A stretch of 64,000 bases of DNA from Spirochaetia bacterium (GCA_035530395.1 DATKUX010000146.1:273-64272); one strand, 5' to 3'. Counted from the first letter of the stretch, positions 21,560-57,224 are shown. Notes: a model not told the origin generated them from the sequence alone. Translations and numbers: made by a program.

Positions 21560-22525
21560 TTATGTCAGACTTCTGCCGGCTCCGGGCCCCGTCGCGCCCA
21601 GCTTTGCGGCCAGTTGTTCCAGGCGCCGCAACCGGTGGTTGACCGCCGACTTGGAGATCTGCGGCTCCATCATTTCCCCCAATTCCTGCAAACTGGCATC
21701 GGGGTTTTCCACGCGCAAGGCGGCTATGACCCGGAGAGCAGGCGGCAACCTTCTCAGACCCAGTATTTCATCCAGCTGCCCTATGCTCTCCAACTGGCGC
21801 AAGCTTGCTTCCACCGTCCGGTTCAGGTTGGCCGTCTCGCAGTTGACCACCCGGTTGACGTCCCCCTTGACTCCCCTCAGCACACGCGCGTTTTCAAACT
21901 CCAGGAAGGCGGTGTGGGCACCGGCCAGCTTCAAAAAGGCGGCGATGGATTCACTTTCCTTGAGATAGACCACATGGCGCCCTTTGCGCGGGCAGCCCAA
22001 AGCCTTGAGCCCGAAACGCCGCATCAGGGCGGACACATCCCGCGCTTTCCGGGCGGAGTTCGTGACTATTTCCAGGTGGTAATCCCCGGCCGGGTTGCTG
22101 ACCGAGCCGGCGGCCAGAAAGGCCCCCCGCAGGTAGGCCCGCCGGCAGCAATCCCGGCCGGTTAAACGGGCCGGGCAAGTCTGCGAAAGAAGCCCCGACC
22201 GGTCCAGGAGACCTAGACCGGCCAGGACGAGACGGGGCTGCGCACACTCGGGCAGACGAACCCGGTAGAGGTTGTTTTTGTGCAGCCGCGCTCCTTTGTA
22301 GACCTGCACCTCGGCGGACAGGCCGGCACATTCCTTGAAAAGGGTGAACGTCTTTCTGGCCACCGCTGCGCTGGGGGTAACCACGGCGAGACACAGGCGC
22401 CTGTCGCCGGCGATCTCCAGACGGCCGGCCAGGCTCACCAGCGCCGCCAGTTCGGCTTTCCGGCAACAGGCGGACGTACTCCCCACGCGGGCCAGTTCGC
22501 TTTTGGTCAGAGCTGAAAAAGACAT
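21560..22525 (-). CDS. whiA: DNA-binding protein WhiA
   Basis: 321 aa with the WhiA-type N-terminus MSFSALTKSELARV, LAGLIDADG-like repeats and a C-terminal HTH. Found in the usual neighbourhood with yvcK/rapZ. Confidence 0.85.
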   Translation of the reverse strand: MSFSALTKSELARVGSTSACCRKAELAALVSLAGRLEIAGDRRLCLAVVTPSAAVARKTFTLFKECAGLSAEVQVYKGARLHKNNLYRVRLPECAQPRLVLAGLGLLDRSGLLSQTCPARLTGRDCCRRAYLRGAFLAAGSVSNPAGDYHLEIVTNSARKARDVSALMRRFGLKALGCPRKGRHVVYLKESESIAAFLKLAGAHTAFLEFENARVLRGVKGDVNRVVNCETANLNRTVEASLRQLESIGQLDEILGLRRLPPALRVIAALRVENPDASLQELGEMMEPQISKSAVNHRLRRLEQLAAKLGATGPGAGRSLT

Positions 22526-22543
22526 GGCGGTACCCCCCCTCGT

Positions 22544-23338
22544 TCAGCCGGTTCCCAGGAGCAGGGCGGCAAAGTCGGCCGGGCCGATCCGGCCGTTGAC
22601 ACGCAGGCGGCGCAAGGCGTACAGGTCGGCCCCGGGCCTGTTGACCCCGGGCCGGGTGGAAACGGCGCCCCGGTAATACCGGCGGGCCAGCCGGCGGGTC
22701 TTTTGGTCAAAACTTCCGTACGGGTAGCAGAAAAAGGCTACCGGGCGGCCCAAAGCGCTTTCCAGGATGGTCCGGGAAGAGAGTAATTCCGCCACCGCCT
22801 GGTCCGGCGCCAGGCCGGCCATATGGAGGTGCCTGGCGCCGTGGGACTCGAAGTCGATACCGTCCGCCGCCATCTCCCTTATCTGGCCCCACTGCAACAT
22901 CGGCAGAACCGGCCCCCGGTCAAAATAGTTGGTTTTATCAACGGCCCCGGCCACCAGGAATATTGTGGCCGGGAAATGGTACTTCTTTAATACGGGGAAG
23001 GCGAAACGGTAATTGTCCTCGTAGCCGTCATCGAAGGTTATAACCACGGGCCGGGGCTCCAGGGCACCTCCCCGCCGCAGGTAGGCGACCGCCCGGTCCA
23101 GGGTGACCGGGTGGTAACCGGCCCGGGCCAGGTAGTCCATCTGCCGGGCGAACTGCCCGGGGGTAACCTTCAGGCCGGGACCGCCCGGACTGGTCGCCGT
23201 ATCCACCCGGTGATACATGAGCACCGGCACGAACCGCTCCCTGCCCCCGGCCCGTCCCTCGTCGGGCACCAAAATCCCGGGCTGCAGGGCTAAAAAGACA
23301 ATCAGACAGGCCGCGAAAACGAGACTTCTTATAGCCAC
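22544..23338 (-). CDS. Polysaccharide deacetylase (CE4) family protein, secreted
   Basis: Signal/TM N-terminus. NodB motifs VVITFDDGYEDNY and HGARH. Confidence 0.85.
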   Translation of the reverse strand: MAIRSLVFAACLIVFLALQPGILVPDEGRAGGRERFVPVLMYHRVDTATSPGGPGLKVTPGQFARQMDYLARAGYHPVTLDRAVAYLRRGGALEPRPVVITFDDGYEDNYRFAFPVLKKYHFPATIFLVAGAVDKTNYFDRGPVLPMLQWGQIREMAADGIDFESHGARHLHMAGLAPDQAVAELLSSRTILESALGRPVAFFCYPYGSFDQKTRRLARRYYRGAVSTRPGVNRPGADLYALRRLRVNGRIGPADFAALLLGTG

Positions 23339-24747
23339 CGCCCCCCCGGCCCCGGGGCGGGCATGATCATTATCACAAACGGCCCGTAACCATTGGGGGG
23401 CAGGGTTGTCCGCAACACGTAGGTATGGCCGGGCACCGCGTAAGGCAGATCGAACACCACATGTCCCTGCCCCAGCGGCTGGAGGGAACGGGGCGACCGG
23501 TAATAGCCGGCATAGCCGGGATCCCGGAAGGACACCGTCCTTACGACACCGTCCAAATCGAAGACCAGATGCTGGTCATACATATCCGGCGAGGCCAGCG
23601 GCCCGCTGTAAAGGGCCGGTTGAACGGCTACCGCCGCCGGTCCCGACAACTGGAGCCGGAAGACGTACACAATCCCGTAGTTGCCGCTGTCCTGGGCCCG
23701 GACATGATCGTCAAGGCCGTTTGCGGAGACGTCATTGACGAACATATCCGGTTCATAACCTGGGGCGGTGTCCGGACCACTATCACGGGCGAAATACTGC
23801 TGGGCCACCTGCACAGCTACGGGCTTCACCCCCGGTCCCGGGTCATACCTGATGGTCATGGTCCGGTCGGCCCCGGCAAAAATCCCCCGCTGGTGGAACG
23901 GAGTCGGCGAGGGCGCGCCCGGGGCGTCATCGGCCGGAGATATCACGTCCGATTTGTCGGCCAGCCGGTAGAAAGAGGTAAAGTCGGTCCCGTAACGGGT
24001 GATGAGGACCTCCACCCCGATCCCGCCGTCTGATACGGGCGTCACCAACTGACCGGTCTTTTGGTCGCGTAGGACGAAGTCGAACAGGCCCATGGCCCAG
24101 GCTCCCGGGCCCACGTTTTCCTGGTAGAGGTAGGAACCGCCCGGAGCCAGGTCGGCCAACCGGTGTTCCTCGTCGCCGTCCCCGCTGGCAAACCACTTTT
24201 CCACCAGGGTGGTGCCTTCCCGGCCGCCGAAGTCCGGTCCGGGGCCGGACCCCCCGGCAGCCGGCGCATAGTCCACCGGCCCCGCCAGGGTGCCGTTTCT
24301 GTCCGTGGTGCGCATTGTCGCCATACGCGTCCAAAAAAGGGAGACCGCCCGGCCGGTGTGGTTGACGACAGCCACACCTATGGTCGCCGGATCGTCCACC
24401 CGGGGGTTGCGCGGATCGAAAAGCAGGTTTTTATGGCTGTAAAGGAGCCGGAAACGGCCCGACATGACGTTATCCATTTTACACAGTATGCCGGGCCGGT
24501 TGGGAAACTCGGGGCTGTTGCTCAGCACCAGGGGCTGGGTGGAAAGATCCAGGGCCCGGCCCCGGCTGAGTGATACCGCCTGATCGAACACGCTCGCCGC
24601 TACCGTGAACTGACCGGGATCGGCCGGCGCGGGTACAGCGGTTCCCCACCAGCCGGCCAAAACGAGTAAAATTGCAAGAAGTCGCGTCCAACGGTGCAAG
24701 AAGAAGTCACCAAAAGTTGCCGCGCGGAAGCCCCTGGATTTATCCAT
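23329..24747 (-). CDS. Secreted hypothetical protein (no recognisable domain)
   Basis: 472 aa from ATG 24747. Signal-like WTRLLAILLVLAGWWGTAVPAPA. It overlaps the deacetylase start by 10 nt. The start codon lies inside the IscB element end hairpin. Confidence 0.6.
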   Translation of the reverse strand: MDKSRGFRAATFGDFFLHRWTRLLAILLVLAGWWGTAVPAPADPGQFTVAASVFDQAVSLSRGRALDLSTQPLVLSNSPEFPNRPGILCKMDNVMSGRFRLLYSHKNLLFDPRNPRVDDPATIGVAVVNHTGRAVSLFWTRMATMRTTDRNGTLAGPVDYAPAAGGSGPGPDFGGREGTTLVEKWFASGDGDEEHRLADLAPGGSYLYQENVGPGAWAMGLFDFVLRDQKTGQLVTPVSDGGIGVEVLITRYGTDFTSFYRLADKSDVISPADDAPGAPSPTPFHQRGIFAGADRTMTIRYDPGPGVKPVAVQVAQQYFARDSGPDTAPGYEPDMFVNDVSANGLDDHVRAQDSGNYGIVYVFRLQLSGPAAVAVQPALYSGPLASPDMYDQHLVFDLDGVVRTVSFRDPGYAGYYRSPRSLQPLGQGHVVFDLPYAVPGHTYVLRTTLPPNGYGPFVIMIMPAPGPGGRWL

Positions 24748-26584
24748 GGGGAGGAATCGCGGCACCGGCGTCAGCCGGCATCCTTTCGTGTTGCCAACCA
24801 TTGGCCCTTTGCCGCAACCGGCAATACTTTACCGGGATCCCCTGGCAGATCCGTTTCCCCGTGCCTTCCTTGATGTCGAAGTAGCCACTCTTTCTGACAG
24901 CCACCCGGCCGCGCCAACTGCCTGTGTACTTCCCTTTCGGGATATCGGCCGCCACCAGGTCGCCGGTCTTGAAACCGCAGTGGGTCTTCTTCCGTTCTCG
25001 CCACCGATAGGGAAATCCGTACTTGTCGATCCCGGCCATCTGCCGGTTGCCCCGACCGGTGGCCGTGTAGACCTCGACAAACGACACAGCCACCGTTTCC
25101 GGAAGGTTTTTCCCCACGCACGCGGCATCATAGTAGTGGGTCTTCGGTAGTTTTAACACCTGGGTACGATTGTACTTCGTCAGGCCACCGCTCCCGGTTT
25201 CCAGGGGCAACGCGAGAGCCGTGAGCCGTCGATAGAGCCCCCACCTGGTCGCGTTCATCATGGCCGCATCCTTCAGGGGCTGTTTCAACTCTTGGAGCGC
25301 CTTTGGCAGATTATCTGTCCGAATCTGGTCCAGGGCCTTGCCGGACGCCCGCAACTGTTCCAGCCACTCCTCCGGCTGCAGGTTGCCCTTATCATCATTG
25401 CACTTCTTGCAGGCGATGACCAAATTCGAGACCCGGTCCGTGCCCTTCGGCCCGTGGTCCGGGTTCCTTGGAACCACGTGCTCCACGTTCAGAACAGGGT
25501 CTCCGGAGGCACCCCGACAGTAAGCGCATAGGCGGGCAAATTTCTGCAGCAGGTACTCCCGCACCTCGTACCCGGCCAAGGTACCCTGCTGGTACTCGAC
25601 GCCGGAGATGTCCGGATTCTCCATCAGTTGGGTATCGAACCGGATCAACTCCATCGCGATCGCGGTGATGGGCAGGAGCTGGCGCATCTTACACACCCAG
25701 GACAAAGTCTCCTCCACCCGGGCCCGGAGCGAAGGCGGCAGCCACGCCTCCCGGAGACCGTTGTCAACGAACCGCCCGGCCTCATGGCACGGACGGCAGT
25801 ACCGGCTGCCGTGTTTCGCGTTCCGGCCACAGGCGGCACACTTCTCCGGGTGCCGATTGTTGAACCGGGGTTCCCGATACCGGGTCTTCCGGTTCCTGCG
25901 GCTCCGGCGTTGCTCCCGCCGGGCGTCCAGGTTTCCCTTGATGTCCGTCCGGTGTCGACATTCATAGCAGCCTATGGTTACTTTACCGTCCCGGACCACC
26001 GCACCCCCGGTTACTTTCGACCCGGGATCCAGCTTCATGTCGAGGGGTTGCAGAACACTGTCCTCAACCAAGCGGTCTTTCAGTCTGATCGTGAACGGAG
26101 CCATCTTGTGGACCACCGCCCGGCCGTGCTCCAAAAGTAGCCGGGCCCGTTTCTCGCTACATGGCATTAATGGTTTTTTGCGCTTGTCGAGTACATAAAC
26201 CACATGATTTCATCCTTTCTCTCCTTTCGGAGATCCCTTACGGGACCGGTTCCGCGCCGGGCTCGACACCCGGCATCTCTCCTCGCCGATGTTATCCCGG
26301 CTTTGCGCCGGCGGCACTGCTCGCATATAGTACGGTGATTACTGTGAATATGCTGTGTCCATTGTTACATCCACCCCTGCTCGCTGTTTAACCGCCGACG
26401 GCAGCTCCTGGAACTGGAGAAGCATCCCAGGGTGCCGGGACCGGAATAACGTAGTCTGCTCGCTCGGAGATCCCGGCAGACTTGGGCTGGTCATAGCGCC
26501 CTTGCGGGCTTTCTCGCCTAAATCCGGAGACTGTCGGAGGAGGACCTCCTCAAGCCCCCGGCTTTAGCCGTGGGGTCTATGACC
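24708..26584 (-). mobile_element. Non-autonomous IS200/IS605-type element carrying iscB + omega-RNA (copy 1)
   Basis: The ends were defined by comparison with copy 2. Similarity starts at CACCAAA (24708) and stops after ...GTGGGGTnnnTGAC (26583). Subterminal hairpins lie at 24731-24751 and 26556-26575. No tnpA. Confidence 0.7.
24740..26203 (-). CDS. iscB: IscB RNA-guided endonuclease (PLMP + split RuvC + bridge helix + HNH)
   Basis: 487 aa. Motifs: KKPLMPC (PLMP); LDPGSKVTG (RuvC-I); RREQRRSRRNRKTRYREPRFNNR (Arg-rich helix); IAMELIRFD (RuvC-II); CAYC...NVEHVVP...SNLVIACKKCNDDKGN (HNH); KTHYYDAA (RuvC-III). GTG start with an AGGAGAGAAAGGA RBS. Confidence 0.9.
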   Translation of the reverse strand: MVYVLDKRKKPLMPCSEKRARLLLEHGRAVVHKMAPFTIRLKDRLVEDSVLQPLDMKLDPGSKVTGGAVVRDGKVTIGCYECRHRTDIKGNLDARREQRRSRRNRKTRYREPRFNNRHPEKCAACGRNAKHGSRYCRPCHEAGRFVDNGLREAWLPPSLRARVEETLSWVCKMRQLLPITAIAMELIRFDTQLMENPDISGVEYQQGTLAGYEVREYLLQKFARLCAYCRGASGDPVLNVEHVVPRNPDHGPKGTDRVSNLVIACKKCNDDKGNLQPEEWLEQLRASGKALDQIRTDNLPKALQELKQPLKDAAMMNATRWGLYRRLTALALPLETGSGGLTKYNRTQVLKLPKTHYYDAACVGKNLPETVAVSFVEVYTATGRGNRQMAGIDKYGFPYRWRERKKTHCGFKTGDLVAADIPKGKYTGSWRGRVAVRKSGYFDIKEGTGKRICQGIPVKYCRLRQRANGWQHERMPADAGAAIPPHG

Positions 26585-26599
26585 AATCCTTTTTAGCCG
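26204..26599 (-). ncRNA. Candidate omega-RNA of IscB copy 1 (scaffold about 26204-26584, putative guide about 26584-26599)
   Basis: 380-nt non-coding gap directly 5' of iscB, dense in GC-rich hairpins. It is homologous to the region upstream of iscB-2, with compensatory changes. The extents are inferred, not measured. Confidence 0.65.
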
Positions 26600-27921
26600 G
26601 CAACGTTTTTAAGCAATTCCTTGATTTTCTTTTCCACCCGGAAGGGAATCAGGCCCATCCGTCCGGCGCGCCCCTGCCCGGCCAGCACCAGTTCCAGCAC
26701 GGCCCGACCCAGAAGCTCCGGGTCATGCCTCAGCAGGTCTCCTTCCCGCAGAAGGCGTCCGCCGACCACCCGCACGCCCAGCGCCTCCAGGGCGGCCAGG
26801 TCCACCTGCACCGGCGCGGATCCCTCTTCCCGGTAGCGCTCCAGCACCTTTCCCGGGGCCGGCTGCTGGTTCACCAGGACGCAGTTCACCTTCAACGGGG
26901 CGTGGGCCAATATGGCCCGGAAGTGGTCCGCCGCCGTGTAGCCGGCCGTTTCGCCCGGCTGGGTCATCACGTTCACCACATATATTTTGATGCCCGGGGC
27001 CTGGTTTATAGCCTCGGGAATCCCTTCCACCAGCAGGTTGGGGATGACGCTGGTGTACAGGCTGCCCGGGCCCAGCACTACCGCGTCAGCTTCCCGGATG
27101 GCCGCCAATACTTCTGCCGGCGGCCGGCAGGGAGCCGGTAACAGAAACACCCGCTCGACCGGCAGGGGACTCCGGGCAATGTGACACTGTCCCTTGAGGA
27201 CACTGCCATCGGCCAGGACGGCGCCCAGAACCACGTTGGCCAGGGTCACCGGCAGCACCCGGCCCCTAACCGCCAGTACCTTAGAGAGGCCCTGCACGGC
27301 CGCGAAAAAGTTACCGGTCACCTCGGTCAGGGCCGCCAGCATCAGGTTGCCCAGGCTGTGCCCAGCCAGTTCCCCTGTCCCGAAACGGTACTGCAAAACT
27401 TTTTCCATCAATGTTTCCTTGTCCGCCAGGGCGATCAGGCAATTCCGGATGTCCCCGGGGGGCAGGATACCCAGATCCTCGCGCAACCGGCCCGAACTAC
27501 CACCGTCATCGGCCACCGACACCACCGCCGTGATGTTGGCGGTGTACGCTTTAAGTCCCCTCAAAAGCACCGAGAGGCCGGTGCCGCCCCCGATCACCAC
27601 GATGCGCGGACCACGCTTCAGGTAGCGCCGGGCAAAGATGATGTCCACCAGGCGGCTTTGTTCCTCCGGCAGGAGAACCGTGACCACCGACCGGAAGGCC
27701 CGGTACAGGCCGGCCAGCAAAAGCGCGAAGCCGAGCAGGGCGAGCAGAGCCCCGGCTCCAAACCATTCCAGACTGTGGCGGCTCGGTCCCAGCACCGCCG
27801 CGGCGATCTGGGCGTTCTGGAAGAAGGAACCCGCCACCAGGAGTAACATCATCCCCGCCAGGGCCAGAATAAGCCACCTCTTCACCCGCAGGCCGGGATA
27901 GAGCCACTTCATTATTCTCAA
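26593..27921 (-). CDS. yvcK: Gluconeogenesis factor YvcK (CofD-like, UPF0052)
   Basis: GGGTGLSVLLRGLK motif. N-terminal TM segments. Neighbour of rapZ. Confidence 0.88.
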   Translation of the reverse strand: MRIMKWLYPGLRVKRWLILALAGMMLLLVAGSFFQNAQIAAAVLGPSRHSLEWFGAGALLALLGFALLLAGLYRAFRSVVTVLLPEEQSRLVDIIFARRYLKRGPRIVVIGGGTGLSVLLRGLKAYTANITAVVSVADDGGSSGRLREDLGILPPGDIRNCLIALADKETLMEKVLQYRFGTGELAGHSLGNLMLAALTEVTGNFFAAVQGLSKVLAVRGRVLPVTLANVVLGAVLADGSVLKGQCHIARSPLPVERVFLLPAPCRPPAEVLAAIREADAVVLGPGSLYTSVIPNLLVEGIPEAINQAPGIKIYVVNVMTQPGETAGYTAADHFRAILAHAPLKVNCVLVNQQPAPGKVLERYREEGSAPVQVDLAALEALGVRVVGGRLLREGDLLRHDPELLGRAVLELVLAGQGRAGRMGLIPFRVEKKIKELLKNVAG

Positions 27922-27937
27922 TCAACGAGCCCGCCCT

Positions 27938-28807
27938 TCAAACCCGGTTGACGTCACGGTGCCGGACCCTCACCCGGAAACCCCGCTCCTTGAAGATTTC
28001 GCCCAGCCGGTTGGCCAGGGCCACCGAGCGATGCATGCCGCCCGTGCAACCGATGGCGATCATCAGCGTCGTTTTTCCTTCCTTGGTGTAAAAGGGGATC
28101 ACGTATTCAATAAGATTTATGAACCTTTTCATGAACTCGACTGTTACCGGAGAAGCAAAGACGTAGTCAGCCACCGGCGCATCGTTACCGGTGAAAAGTT
28201 TCAACTCGGCCACATAGTGGGGGTTGGGGAGAAAGCGCACATCCATCACCAGATCCGAGTCGAGCGGTATCCCGTACTTGAACCCGAAGGAAACCACTGT
28301 AACCAGCAGGCCGCCGGTGTCGGGCCCCTCGCCGAAGACACTGGCCAGTTCGTCCTTCAGTTGGCGGCTGGTGAGGTCCGAGGTGTCGATGATCTTATGG
28401 GCCCGTCCCTTGAGCTCTTCCAGTCGGCGGCGTTCCTCCCTTATCCCGGTCAGGATTTCCGTGGAAAGGGGGTGGCGGCGGCGTGTTTCCTTGAAGCGGC
28501 GTACGAGGGCCTCGTCGGACGCGTCCAGGAACAGGATTTCGTAGCGTACGCCGCTGCGGTCCAGGTCGGCCAGCACCTCGAACAGGGTGTCGAAAAACTC
28601 GCCGCCCCGGATATCAACCACCAGGGCGACATTGCTTATCCGGCCGGCCGTCTGCGCCAGGAGTTCCCCAAACTTGGGAATGAGGGCCGGGGGCAGGTTG
28701 TCGACGCAGAAGAACCCCAGGTCCTCCAGGCTACGCAAGGCCTGCGTCTTCCCCGCCCCGGACAGCCCGGTTACAATTACCAGTCTGGGCTGGGTTATGA
28801 TAAACAC
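27938..28807 (-). CDS. rapZ: RNase adapter protein RapZ (YvcJ)
   Basis: [32 protein letters not shown] and C-terminal [10 protein letters not shown] motifs. Confidence 0.92.
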
Positions 28808-55153: not shown

Positions 55154-55272
55154 GTCCCCCTTGCGATTAACCTGGCTTTTTTGTGATCTCCCGTGGCGCA
55201 AAACGACTACGTGTTCAAGCATCGTCGGGTCGCTCCACCCAGACCTTTTGACCCACCTCCCTGGGATAATAC

Positions 55273-57209
55273 CACCAAAGATAGCCGGGCGCGGGAGCCC
55301 CTGCATTTATGCATGGGGAGGAGCGCCCGGTATGCCCCCTTTCCTTTTTGGAATCCATTTGGGAATGCCGTGCCCCTTAAGAGTCTTCACAATCGTACCG
55401 ATAATCGACCGGCTTTCGGACAAACGATTCCTGTACGCCCGTTCTTCCAGGGTCAACTTCTTCCAGTCCTTGTCCGCGATCATGTTTGCTTCCAGATGTG
55501 ATACCTCGAAGGTTCCCCGCTCGCGCAATCCGGTGATATAACCGTGAATTCTTATGCCGTCATTGACAAAAGAGACTTTATCGTACAACTGAAAACCATG
55601 CACCCTTCTTACGGCGGAAGTCCTCTCGCATGTTTTGCCTTTCTTGTTCTCGTTCGAGAAGCGGTGAAAAGGTCTGCGGGCTTTTAAACGCCTTTCGATC
55701 ACATGTTCCGCCGGTAGATCAAAATCTAACCCGCCTGCGGCTATCGTCATCGCGTCGATGATCTGCGCCTTTGGTAAACGAATCTTCAACCTGTAATATT
55801 TCGTCTGATAGCCGAAGGTCGCTTCAACCGGCACGCCAAGTTTCTTTAACTCCTGCCAGAGTGCCCATTTGTAACTTTGAGTCAGGGCACTGTACCGAAA
55901 AGCTCTGTGTTTGACTGCTTCTTTCTGGATATTCGGGAATCCGAATTCTTCTGCCGTTCGAGAACCCTTCTTTAAATTACACGTCTCACAGGCGATTACC
56001 AGGTTGGACACCTTGTCGGTACCGCCCCGGGACTTGGGAATAACGTGCTCGATCTCCAGAACCGGATCGCCGCTCTTTCCCTTGCAGTAAACGCATTGGT
56101 GGCCGTGTTTGTGTAGAAGGTACTCCTTGACCTCGTACCCGAAAAGGGCACCCTGCTGATATTCCGTGCCCTGGACCTCCGACCTGGCCATCTTCTGGGT
56201 ATCAAACGCGGTAAGCTCAACCCGGATCTTCGTTATGGGCATAATCCCGACCAGCTTCTTGACCTCCGCCAGGATCGCGTCAACCTTGTTCCGCAATGTG
56301 GGGTTGAGAATCTTATCGGTATCGTGCTTACCTTTCTCGCCGGCACGTTCATGCTGGCATTTCCGACAGACCGCGGCCCGACCGTTCTCAACCTTTTTGA
56401 GGCTCTTTCCGCCGTTCCTGCGTTTGGCCTTTTTCCAGACCTTCGGCGTGTGGTTCACGCCGCAGACCGAGCAGAACGACTTCGGCCGGTTTTGAAAACG
56501 GGACTTCCGGTACCCGGTATTACGGCCCCGGCGCTCTCTCCGGGCGGCGGCCCGCCGCTTAAGCTGCGCCGAGATGTCAGTCCGGAGCAGGATCTCCTTG
56601 GCATAGACGATCTCACATGTTTGCTCTCCCGGCTTGTGCTGCTCTACTGCTACCGGTGTATCGCTGGAACCCGGATCGATTCCGAGTGTCATTTCCACCG
56701 GTACAAATGCCGTACTTTCGTACGTCAACTGGATGGTGAACGGGTTGTAGCACATAATGACAGCCTTGCCGTCTTTGAGGAGATGCCGGACCCGGCCTGG
56801 CCGCCGCGTCGGCGCCAACCGCTTACCCGACTTCGATATTACGAAGATCTGTTGCTGTTCCGACTTTTTCTCGCTCTGCTTCATCAGAAGAACACCTTCC
56901 GTGGTTCCCCCCTGAGGGGGGGATAATGCGGGCCAGGGGCACCCGTTCAATTCCCCGCCTGTGTTCCGCCGGCTTGCCCGGATACGCCGGGCCGTCCCGA
57001 GGTTGACCGCCCCGTCCCCCGAGGGGCTTTTACAGAGCCTCCAGAATGTTCTGCCAGACTGGCTTTTCATCCGGCTGTCTGCTAACCGGTGGAACGCCCG
57101 GTCGCCCGGGCTGGCTGTCGCTCACGGAGCTTCCGCTCCCGCATCAATCCGAGAACATGTCAGGGTGGTTACTGACAAGCCCCCGCATTTATGCGTGGGG
57201 TGATTGACA
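55273..57209 (-). mobile_element. Non-autonomous IS200/IS605-type element carrying iscB + omega-RNA (copy 2)
   Basis: The same terminal architecture as copy 1. It starts at CACCAAA (55273), has hairpins at 55298-55318 and 57181-57200, and ends ...GTGGGGTnnnTGAC (57208). No tnpA. Confidence 0.7.
55307..56884 (-). CDS. iscB: IscB RNA-guided endonuclease, divergent paralog
   Basis: From ATG 56884: MKQSEKKSEQQQIFVISKSGKRLAPT (PLMP-like). Further motifs: GIDPGSS (RuvC-I); RRAAARRERRGRNTGYRKSRFQNR; IRVELTAFD (RuvC-II); CVYC...EIEHVIP...SNLVIACETCNLKKGS (HNH); KAQIIDAM (RuvC-III, with Q where copy 1 has H). The ORF-track start at 57070 reads through the omega-RNA region. Confidence 0.88.
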   Translation of the reverse strand: MKQSEKKSEQQQIFVISKSGKRLAPTRRPGRVRHLLKDGKAVIMCYNPFTIQLTYESTAFVPVEMTLGIDPGSSDTPVAVEQHKPGEQTCEIVYAKEILLRTDISAQLKRRAAARRERRGRNTGYRKSRFQNRPKSFCSVCGVNHTPKVWKKAKRRNGGKSLKKVENGRAAVCRKCQHERAGEKGKHDTDKILNPTLRNKVDAILAEVKKLVGIMPITKIRVELTAFDTQKMARSEVQGTEYQQGALFGYEVKEYLLHKHGHQCVYCKGKSGDPVLEIEHVIPKSRGGTDKVSNLVIACETCNLKKGSRTAEEFGFPNIQKEAVKHRAFRYSALTQSYKWALWQELKKLGVPVEATFGYQTKYYRLKIRLPKAQIIDAMTIAAGGLDFDLPAEHVIERRLKARRPFHRFSNENKKGKTCERTSAVRRVHGFQLYDKVSFVNDGIRIHGYITGLRERGTFEVSHLEANMIADKDWKKLTLEERAYRNRLSESRSIIGTIVKTLKGHGIPKWIPKRKGGIPGAPPHA

Positions 57210-57224
57210 GGTCGAAGAAGCACC
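56885..57224 (-). ncRNA. Candidate omega-RNA of IscB copy 2 (scaffold about 56885-57208, putative guide about 57209-57224)
   Basis: Structured 325-nt region 5' of iscB-2. Its 5' module aligns with copy 1 (ACCCCACG-hairpin-GGGGGCTTG-hairpin-TCTCGGATT...CCAGCCC). The extents are inferred. Confidence 0.65.

Follow-up and report, generated by a model that had tools for sequence, protein, structure and literature searches.

An IscB-ωRNA locus behind yvcK, very probably a complete non-autonomous element of the IS200/IS605 family

In a DNA stretch of 64,000 nucleotides assigned to a Spirochaetia bacterium (GCA_035530395.1, DATKUX010000146.1:273-64272; the whole stretch is referred to as the window), the gene yvcK is followed on the minus strand by a long non-coding region and an open reading frame (ORF) for a protein of 487 aa. 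[quoted passage not shown] The locus raises the question of what exactly was inserted behind yvcK, where the insertion begins and ends, and whether it represents a functional mobile unit or a remnant that is idle or serves its host. Based on protein profiles, structure modeling, RNA covariation and boundary mapping in related elements, it is very probable that the segment 24712-26583 represents a complete, non-autonomous insertion sequence of the IS200/IS605 family carrying only iscB and the ωRNA gene.

The IscB protein and its ωRNA gene

The 487-aa ORF claimed by the sequence-only reading is present on the minus strand at positions 24740..26203 and starts with GTG. Profile searches and comparison with solved structures, which that reading had named as the way to check its assignment, identified the encoded protein as IscB. 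It matched the NCBIfam equivalog guided_IscB (NF040563) with 378.3 bits (cutoff 175) and the Pfam family RRXRR (PF14239) with 213 bits (cutoff 25; E = 2.7e-63). Among proteins of solved structure, the best sequence match was TbaIscB (E = 3.9e-43), followed by OgeuIscB (~1e-19), then IsrB and type II-D Cas9.

Moreover, the quoted motifs were all found at mapped positions and in the domain order of IscB, namely PLMP (residues 11-14), RuvC-I (LDPGS, 58-62, with D59), bridge helix, FNNR, a REC-like zinc finger, RuvC-II (AMELIRFD, 183-190, with E185), HNH (CAYC, 226-229; EHVVP, 241-245, with E241-H242; CKKCNDDKGN, 265-274), RuvC-III (THYYDAA, 355-361, with H356 and D359) and a beta-rich C-terminal region resembling WED/TI. 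The bridge helix is represented by an Arg-rich stretch at residues ~95-113 and by an Arg-rich modeled helix (88-105) following RuvC-I. The HNH part was matched by PF01844 and PF14279 at residues 226-279, that is, between RuvC-II and RuvC-III. For OgeuIscB, the catalytic residues D61, E193, H340 and D343 (RuvC) and H247 (HNH) were reported (PMC9640706), and D59, E185, H356, D359 and H242 of the protein described here align with them in this order. Alignment to the catalytic residues of IscB, on which the sequence-only reading had made its assignment depend, was thus obtained for the RuvC and the HNH residues alike. Across 72 homologs, the catalytic residues as well as N260, N269 and the four cysteines of the HNH finger (C226/C229/C265/C268) are conserved to at least 90%, and H242, N260, N269 and these four cysteines are invariant or nearly so. 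Since the catalytic residues are aligned and conserved, there is no sign of inactivation of this IscB.

An AlphaFold2 model calculated with the 72 homologs reached a mean predicted local distance difference test (pLDDT) value of 84.4 and a predicted template modeling score of 0.77. Its N-terminus, a beta-sheet plus helix, was modeled with pLDDT >95, and the PLMP motif is kept in 62-66 of the 72 homologs. Foldseek returned 9k30, 8csz, 9nvu, 9liq and 8dmb as top matches (E-values of 1e-18 to 1e-22, or 1e-14 to 1e-22 with 7xht included). TbaIscB, OgeuIscB, OrufIscB and IsrB were all matched with a probability of 1.00 and a template modeling (TM) score of ~0.5 over ~540 columns, a modest value that is unsurprising for a multi-domain protein. 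The IscB/IsrB set was followed by type II-D Cas9 and then by ordinary Cas9 proteins.

The sequence-only reading had also stated that the protein has no REC lobe. A helical REC lobe is indeed lacking, but the REC position is occupied by a zinc finger of only ~20 residues, whose four cysteines (C122/C125/C136/C139) are located between FNNR (114-117) and LPPS (155-158). This insert is present in 40 of the 72 close homologs and cleanly missing from the other 32; TbaIscB shares its CxxC...C pattern in the alignment. A small zinc finger of REC-like type, with FNNR and LTP motifs on either side, has been described in CzcbIscB and is regarded as homologous to the REC zinc finger of type II-D Cas9 (NovaIscB paper, PMC13180657), and the feature therefore constitutes a known variant. 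Taken together, the protein is an IscB with complete sets of RuvC and HNH catalytic residues, for which cleavage activity is predicted from sequence and model.

Between the iscB start codon and the upstream end of the element, exactly 380 nt are non-coding (26204-26583, minus strand). HEARO (RF02033) is an Rfam family that was later recognized as the ωRNA of IscB. Its model matched directly upstream of iscB on the same strand at 26272-26583, leaving 68 nt between the match and the start codon, with 111.9 bits (gathering threshold 83; E = 1.6e-23) and over its full length without truncation (model positions 1-211). The structured non-coding region and the ωRNA gene proposed for this interval were thereby recovered. 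Furthermore, the 396-nt RNA composed of guide and scaffold folds better than 100 of 100 shuffled sequences (minimum free energy z = -4.0). In an alignment of 14 elements reaching from the right end (RE) to the start codon, compensatory changes keep pairing at 21 of the 45 predicted pairs; as close relatives are included, this covariation is supportive rather than statistical. Covariation is seen in the GUCAUAG/CUAUGAC stem that closes the structure, in a long-range helix (columns 180-189/366-375) and in an internal hairpin (columns 199-206/216-223).

Beyond the end of the Rfam model, three terminal hairpins were found at ~26273-26257, 26245-26234 and 26233-26220, of which the latter two are recognizable in relatives with altered stems. 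These additional 3' hairpins fit the remark that RF02033 does not include the 3' elements of the IscB ωRNA (Meers et al. 2023, 10.1101/2023.03.14.532601) as well as the terminal hairpins in the OgeuIscB structure (PMC9640706). The region upstream of iscB is accordingly a HEARO/ωRNA gene with covariation support, the transcript of which is predicted.

Element ends, target-adjacent motif and predicted guide

The element boundaries were mapped with the help of 58 loci from genomes and 80 from metagenomes. The first clue was a block of 50 nt around both stop codons that is common to the iscB gene described here (locus 1) and to a second, divergent IscB ORF within the window (locus 2). The RE is located at 26555..26583 (minus strand) and consists of GTCATAGA and, after it, an imperfect palindrome, CCCCACGGCTAAAGCCGGGGG (26575-26555), which is also the first hairpin of the ωRNA. 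The RE start GTCATAGA is invariant in 26 loci, and the flanks preceding the G of GTCA are unrelated, which places the end at 26583. Related elements all begin with GTCA(TAGA)-CCCCAC....GGGGG-CTTG. At the opposite side, the left end (LE) comprises the subterminal hairpin CCCCATGGATAAATCCAGGGG (24731..24751, minus strand), in the loop of which the iscB stop codon TAA (24742-24740) is located, and the terminal segment CTTCCGCGCGGCAACTTTTG (24712..24730, minus strand), reading CTTCYCGCGSGC..TTTG as consensus in relatives. The LE hairpin is found at the 3' end of ~20 related elements and is shared with locus 2, where its stem is compensated (GGAT/ATCC to GCAT/ATGC). Homology to the related elements L065-L069 continues through the LE terminal segment.

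The hairpins of LE and RE are direct repeats (family D3) with 83% identity and are not inverted. Likewise, the sequence GTCATAGA... at one end does not recur inverted in ...TTTTG(GTGA) at the other, and there is no duplication between the flanks GGATTG and CTTCTT, so that neither terminal inverted repeats nor a target-site duplication are present. Direct-repeat hairpins, non-inverted ends and a missing target duplication are hallmarks of IS200/IS605 elements. In addition, four sister elements of 83-87% DNA identity that occupy different sites align from 26583/26584 to 24707/24701, and the G+C content inside the element is 0.59-0.60 as compared to ~0.65 in its flanks. These observations carry the assignment of 24712-26583 to the IS200/IS605 family given at the outset.

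The motif GTGA (24708..24711, minus strand; TCAC on the plus strand, 5' of LE) abuts the LE. Among 22 mapped junctions, the position after LE is occupied by GTGA in 17, by ATGA in four and by GTGG in one (RTGA in 21 of 22; TCAY on the top strand), and the relatives diverge right after it. For iscB elements it was described that the RNA upstream of iscB is bounded by RE and that the target-adjacent motif (TAM), common to the transposase TnpA and IscB, is found on the top strand 5' of LE, TTCAT being the experimentally determined TAM of GstIscB (Meers et al. 2023, 10.1101/2023.03.14.532601). The TCAY found here is of the same type and orientation. Moreover, the terminal motif of RE (ATGAC, top strand) differs from the putative TAM (nTCAC) at position 3, which parallels the relation between TAM and transposon-encoded motif described for ISGst (Meers et al. 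2023). By analogy, GTGA probably is the TAM, and the TnpA target site, of this element, which would then end at 24712; alternatively, it constitutes the last 4 nt of the element, the LE/TAM boundary being uncertain by 4 nt. The lower bound given by the sequence-only reading, 24708, is also the position at which DNA conservation among relatives ends, but 24708-24711 more likely belongs to the flank. A covariation in the manner of IS608 between the TAM and the 4 nt located 5' of the LE hairpin, searched for by eye in the relatives, followed no consistent rule and was dropped.

Directly outside of RE, the host sequence CGGCUAAAAAGGAUUG (26584..26599, minus strand) is predicted to serve as the ωRNA guide. 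It contains the stop codon TAA (26595-26593) of the upstream gene at 26593..27921, which encodes a CofD (Pfam) protein of the YvcK family. The position of the element directly behind this stop codon was confirmed, with the element edge at 26583. For the guide at 26584-26599, the proposed location is supported by the fact that homology begins exactly at GTCA (26583) in more than 20 relatives with unrelated flanks and that the HEARO match also starts at 26583. The guide sequence does not occur elsewhere in the window, even with up to three mismatches. A motif scan of the yvcK/ωRNA junction found neither a sigma-70-like promoter nor an intrinsic terminator, a result that is compatible with read-through transcription but not evidence for it. 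An iscB orientation that agrees with the upstream gene's was reported as the favored arrangement (Meers et al. 2023, 10.1101/2023.03.14.532601), and the element follows this bias.

From published IscB/IS605 biology (Altae-Tran 2021; Meers 2023), the following course of events can be proposed. Transcription of the rapZ-yvcK operon would run into the element and yield an RNA with ~16 nt of host sequence at its 5' end (CGGCUAAAAAGGAUUG, 26599-26584), followed by a scaffold of ~360-380 nt, to which IscB would bind. A TnpA acting in trans would excise the element as single-stranded DNA, leaving the resealed donor joint 5'-CGGCTAAAAAGGATTG|GTGA-3', which would combine a perfect guide match with the TAM; around the former insertion, the empty joint is predicted to read ...GCCGGCTAAAAAGGATTGGTGACTTCTTCTTGCACC.... 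IscB would then cut both strands of this joint, the target strand by HNH and the non-target strand by RuvC, and recombination with the sister chromosome would restore the element. The occupied site would be spared, since GTCA, the start of RE, and not GTGA comes after the guide match at this site.

Mobility, genomic neighborhood and a second IscB element

Regarding mobility of the lineage, five copies with 78-87% identity were found at different sites in a sister metagenome. Furthermore, HUW65590.1, a second protein of the same 90%-identity cluster, carries the same metagenome-assembled genome (MAG) label 'Spirochaetia bacterium'. Both findings argue for recent movement. As the sequence-only reading had stated for a stand-alone OMEGA unit, no cas1/2 or other cas genes (Pfam searches on called genes and ORFs) and no CRISPR array (tandem-repeat and k-mer searches, no interspaced repeats) were found in the 64-kb window, and tnpA was not detected there either, which is the usual situation for iscB.

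Several observations weigh against the interpretation as a complete mobile unit with a functional guide. No gene for a Y1 transposase (tnpA, PF01797) was detected in the window or in the examined parts of the 78-kb source contig by Pfam searches on called genes and remaining ORFs, and movement would accordingly require a transposase that was not seen. In each of the three datasets with this locus, the site is occupied, and a scan of Joint Genome Institute (JGI) metagenome contigs for the empty joint (GGCTAAAAAGGATTG, 0-10 nt, CTTCTTCTTGCACC) returned nothing. Moreover, the guide length of 16 nt is assumed from published IscB systems, and the AlphaFold2 model is of low confidence in the zinc-finger region and in the last eight residues. 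Exact-protein look-ups of YvcK and of the downstream deacetylase likewise returned only occupied sites or a contig breaking inside LE, and the flanks of L065-L069, sought inside the window as reciprocal empty sites, were absent from it.

The missing transposase and the invariably occupied site would also be expected of a stranded relic, that is, an intact IscB/ωRNA unit fixed in a genome devoid of a compatible TnpA, the nuclease of which is idle or cuts only rare empty alleles arriving by recombination. The low frequency of tnpA near iscB agrees with this explanation, since a nearby tnpA was reported for only ~1.5% of iscB genes and ~98.5% lack it (Meers et al. 2023, 10.1101/2023.03.14.532601). 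However, the ORF is intact, as are its catalytic residues, the hairpins of LE and RE and the ωRNA, and recent movement is suggested by close copies that occupy several further sites in this environment, together with the second cluster member bearing the same MAG label. A stranded relic is therefore considered improbable, and an insertion sequence that is mobile with the help of a transposase in trans is preferred.

The genomic neighborhood was also considered. The yvcK gene is preceded by a RapZ gene, and whiA lies three genes further along from yvcK. The IscB element is located in the spacer downstream of yvcK and shares the orientation of the gene string rapZ-yvcK-...-whiA. Between yvcK and whiA (window 21560-28807, minus strand), the IscB element, a 490-aa protein without Pfam match and a polysaccharide deacetylase are encoded. 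In Bacillota, yvcK and whiA are usually adjacent, and the gene string rapZ-yvcK-...-whiA is Bacillota-like. The closest relatives of the IscB protein originate from Desulfofundulus, Pelotomaculum and other Bacillota, as opposed to the NCBI label 'Spirochaetia bacterium' of the MAG; the best match among GTDB representatives is 65% identical and belongs to Desulfofundulus. The taxonomic label of the MAG may therefore reflect a binning or classification error. As a further observation, the called start of the downstream gene (478/490 aa, no Pfam match, signal-peptide-like N-terminus) lies within the transposon LE and overlaps the 3' end of iscB (window 24699-24801, minus strand). A TTG at ~24699, giving MHRWTRLLAILLVLAGWW..., is the more likely native start, and the 20-30 N-terminal residues of the annotated protein are probably transposon-derived.

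The co-oriented position inside a conserved gene string, the missing terminator motif and the called start codon of the downstream gene inside LE could also be taken to indicate a domesticated or regulatory insertion, the RNA or protein of which is kept to serve the host operon, e.g., in expression of the downstream genes for the secreted protein and the deacetylase or of whiA. This explanation is very improbable, since the ends, the TAM-like flank and the correspondence of guide and flank are all as in mobile relatives, these relatives occupy unrelated sites, and the nuclease residues are retained, unlike in known domesticated TnpB or IscB derivatives. Hardly any credence is left for an assignment outside of OMEGA, since the name '5-methylcytosine-specific restriction endonuclease McrA' given by JGI to several homologs is accounted for by an HNH part covering residues ~226-279 only in a protein also featuring PLMP, a split RuvC and a bridge helix, whereas a miniature type II-D Cas9, as suggested by weak partial matches to Cas9d and Cas9 models and structures, is effectively refuted, like the plain HNH/McrA-type restriction enzyme, by domain content, a Cas9d score of 36 bits (cutoff 375), the lack of a helical REC lobe and of CRISPR arrays or cas genes in 64 kb, and the HEARO RNA in its canonical position.

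Locus 2 represents a second, divergent IscB element at ~55272-57224 (minus strand), whose protein shares 36% aa identity with that of locus 1 and matched guided_IscB with 309 bits. Its listed ORF extends over 55307..57070; the true start is likely located at ~56884, resulting in 525 aa, because a sub-threshold HEARO match (40 bits, 56945-57208) overlaps the 5' part of the ORF. The RE of locus 2 begins with GTCAATCA at 57208, 15 nt past the TAG stop codon of a co-oriented upstream ORF, and its LE hairpin (55318-55298) is followed by GTGG (55275-55272). In the protein, RLAP replaces PLMP, and the RuvC-III histidine is changed to glutamine (KAQIIDA). Judged from this replacement, RuvC of locus 2 may be impaired, which would render the protein a nickase or inactive. 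For the ORF preceding locus 2, a look-up gave no record, and look-ups of FtsE returned short contigs only. The contigs of L061 and L064 both end at window position 55225/55224, ~47 nt outside the LE of locus 2, and the contig of L147 begins inside the LE hairpin of locus 1 (24746). Such ends of contigs from independent assemblies at or near the element ends suggest assembly breaks induced by repeats or polymorphism.

Insertion sites were finally compared across the lineage. The two copies in the window are located 9 nt (locus 1) and 15 nt (locus 2) after a stop codon. In five of 22 mapped relatives (L002, L008, L052, L095 and L138), a co-oriented upstream ORF extends into RE and finds its stop codon there, either the TAG within GTCATAG or the TAA located in the loop of the hairpin. 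Furthermore, the end of a co-oriented ORF lies within 150 nt upstream of RE in nine of 22 elements as compared to 22.6% of control positions (p = 0.04), a marginal difference with a background inflated by spurious high-GC ORFs. It is a tentative and, on balance, unlikely proposal that this IscB lineage preferentially settles within or just behind the 3' ends of co-oriented host genes and thereby captures host transcription for the guide. A true positional preference would exceed the reported orientation bias and provide new information on site choice or survival of OMEGA elements.

Place among known IscB systems

The element is an uncharacterized copy of a thoroughly known kind, the IscB-ωRNA systems, which comprise thousands of members. 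More than 7,900 IscB homologs were obtained at E <= 1e-20 in one search, and the identical protein is already deposited in GenBank as HUW65423.1, "RNA-guided endonuclease IscB" (MAG, third-party annotation). Only mildly interesting, and no surprise to specialists, are the REC-like zinc finger with the relationship to TbaIscB, the length of the ωRNA, a predicted TAM that is short, and the position in a conserved operon together with a second, very different IscB element at a distance of 31 kb. What the database record gains is the position of both element ends (RE and LE), the coordinates of the ωRNA, the predicted guide, a predicted donor-joint target with an RTGA TAM and the REC-like zinc finger; in addition, the start codon of the downstream gene is flagged as called inside the transposon. 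With its anatomy known, this copy can be put to a direct test as a compact nuclease, and, being an IscB with a zinc finger and a short TAM predicted as RTGA, it could be an uncharacterized compact editor. Beyond this, its importance mostly lies in correct annotation.

Compared to OgeuIscB-ωRNA (PDB 7XHT, 7UTN, 8CSZ; Kato 2022, PMC9640706; Schuler 2022), the domain order is the same, the proteins are of similar length (487 aa here vs. 496 aa), the catalytic residues align, and in both systems the ωRNA is located 5' of the gene and bears its guide at the 5' end. Identity in structural alignments amounts to only ~16-20%, however, and the beta-hairpin REC linker of OgeuIscB is replaced here by the four-cysteine zinc finger. 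Further differences concern the ωRNA scaffold region, which comprises up to 380 nt here and 206 nt in OgeuIscB, and the TAM, predicted as RTGA here vs. NWRRNA for OgeuIscB. By sequence, TbaIscB (PDB 9K30) is the best relative among the solved proteins. Type II-D Cas9 (PMC13180657) is distinguished by its CRISPR association and helical REC bundle, both of which are lacking here. In comparison to IscB proteins of the CzcbIscB type with a REC-like zinc finger, the finger behaves as a presence/absence character among the close homologs analyzed here (40 of 72).

With regard to the ends, IS608 and ISDra2, the paradigms of the IS200/IS605 family, share with the element subterminal imperfect palindromes in direct orientation, the lack of terminal inverted repeats and target duplication, and, if GTGA lies outside of the element, a conserved motif of 4-5 nt flanking LE. 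Spacing is asymmetric here, with 20 nt from the putative LE cleavage site to the hairpin and 8 nt from the hairpin to the end of RE, the corresponding values for IS608 being 19 and 10. Unlike the element described here, which lacks tnpA, contains iscB as cargo and is arranged from RE to LE on the opposite strand, IS608 and ISDra2 contain tnpA together with tnpB, and their guide RNA is located at the 3' end. A parallel in organization is offered by GstIscB/ISGst (Meers et al. 2023, 10.1101/2023.03.14.532601). Host lineage and hairpin sequences differ, but both are non-autonomous without tnpA, feature an ωRNA bounded by RE and a TAM (putative here) abutting LE, and are co-oriented with the upstream gene. 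Moreover, their TAMs are of the same type (TTCAT for GstIscB vs. the predicted nTCAC here, top strand), and it is position 3 at which the RE motif of either element departs from its known or putative TAM.

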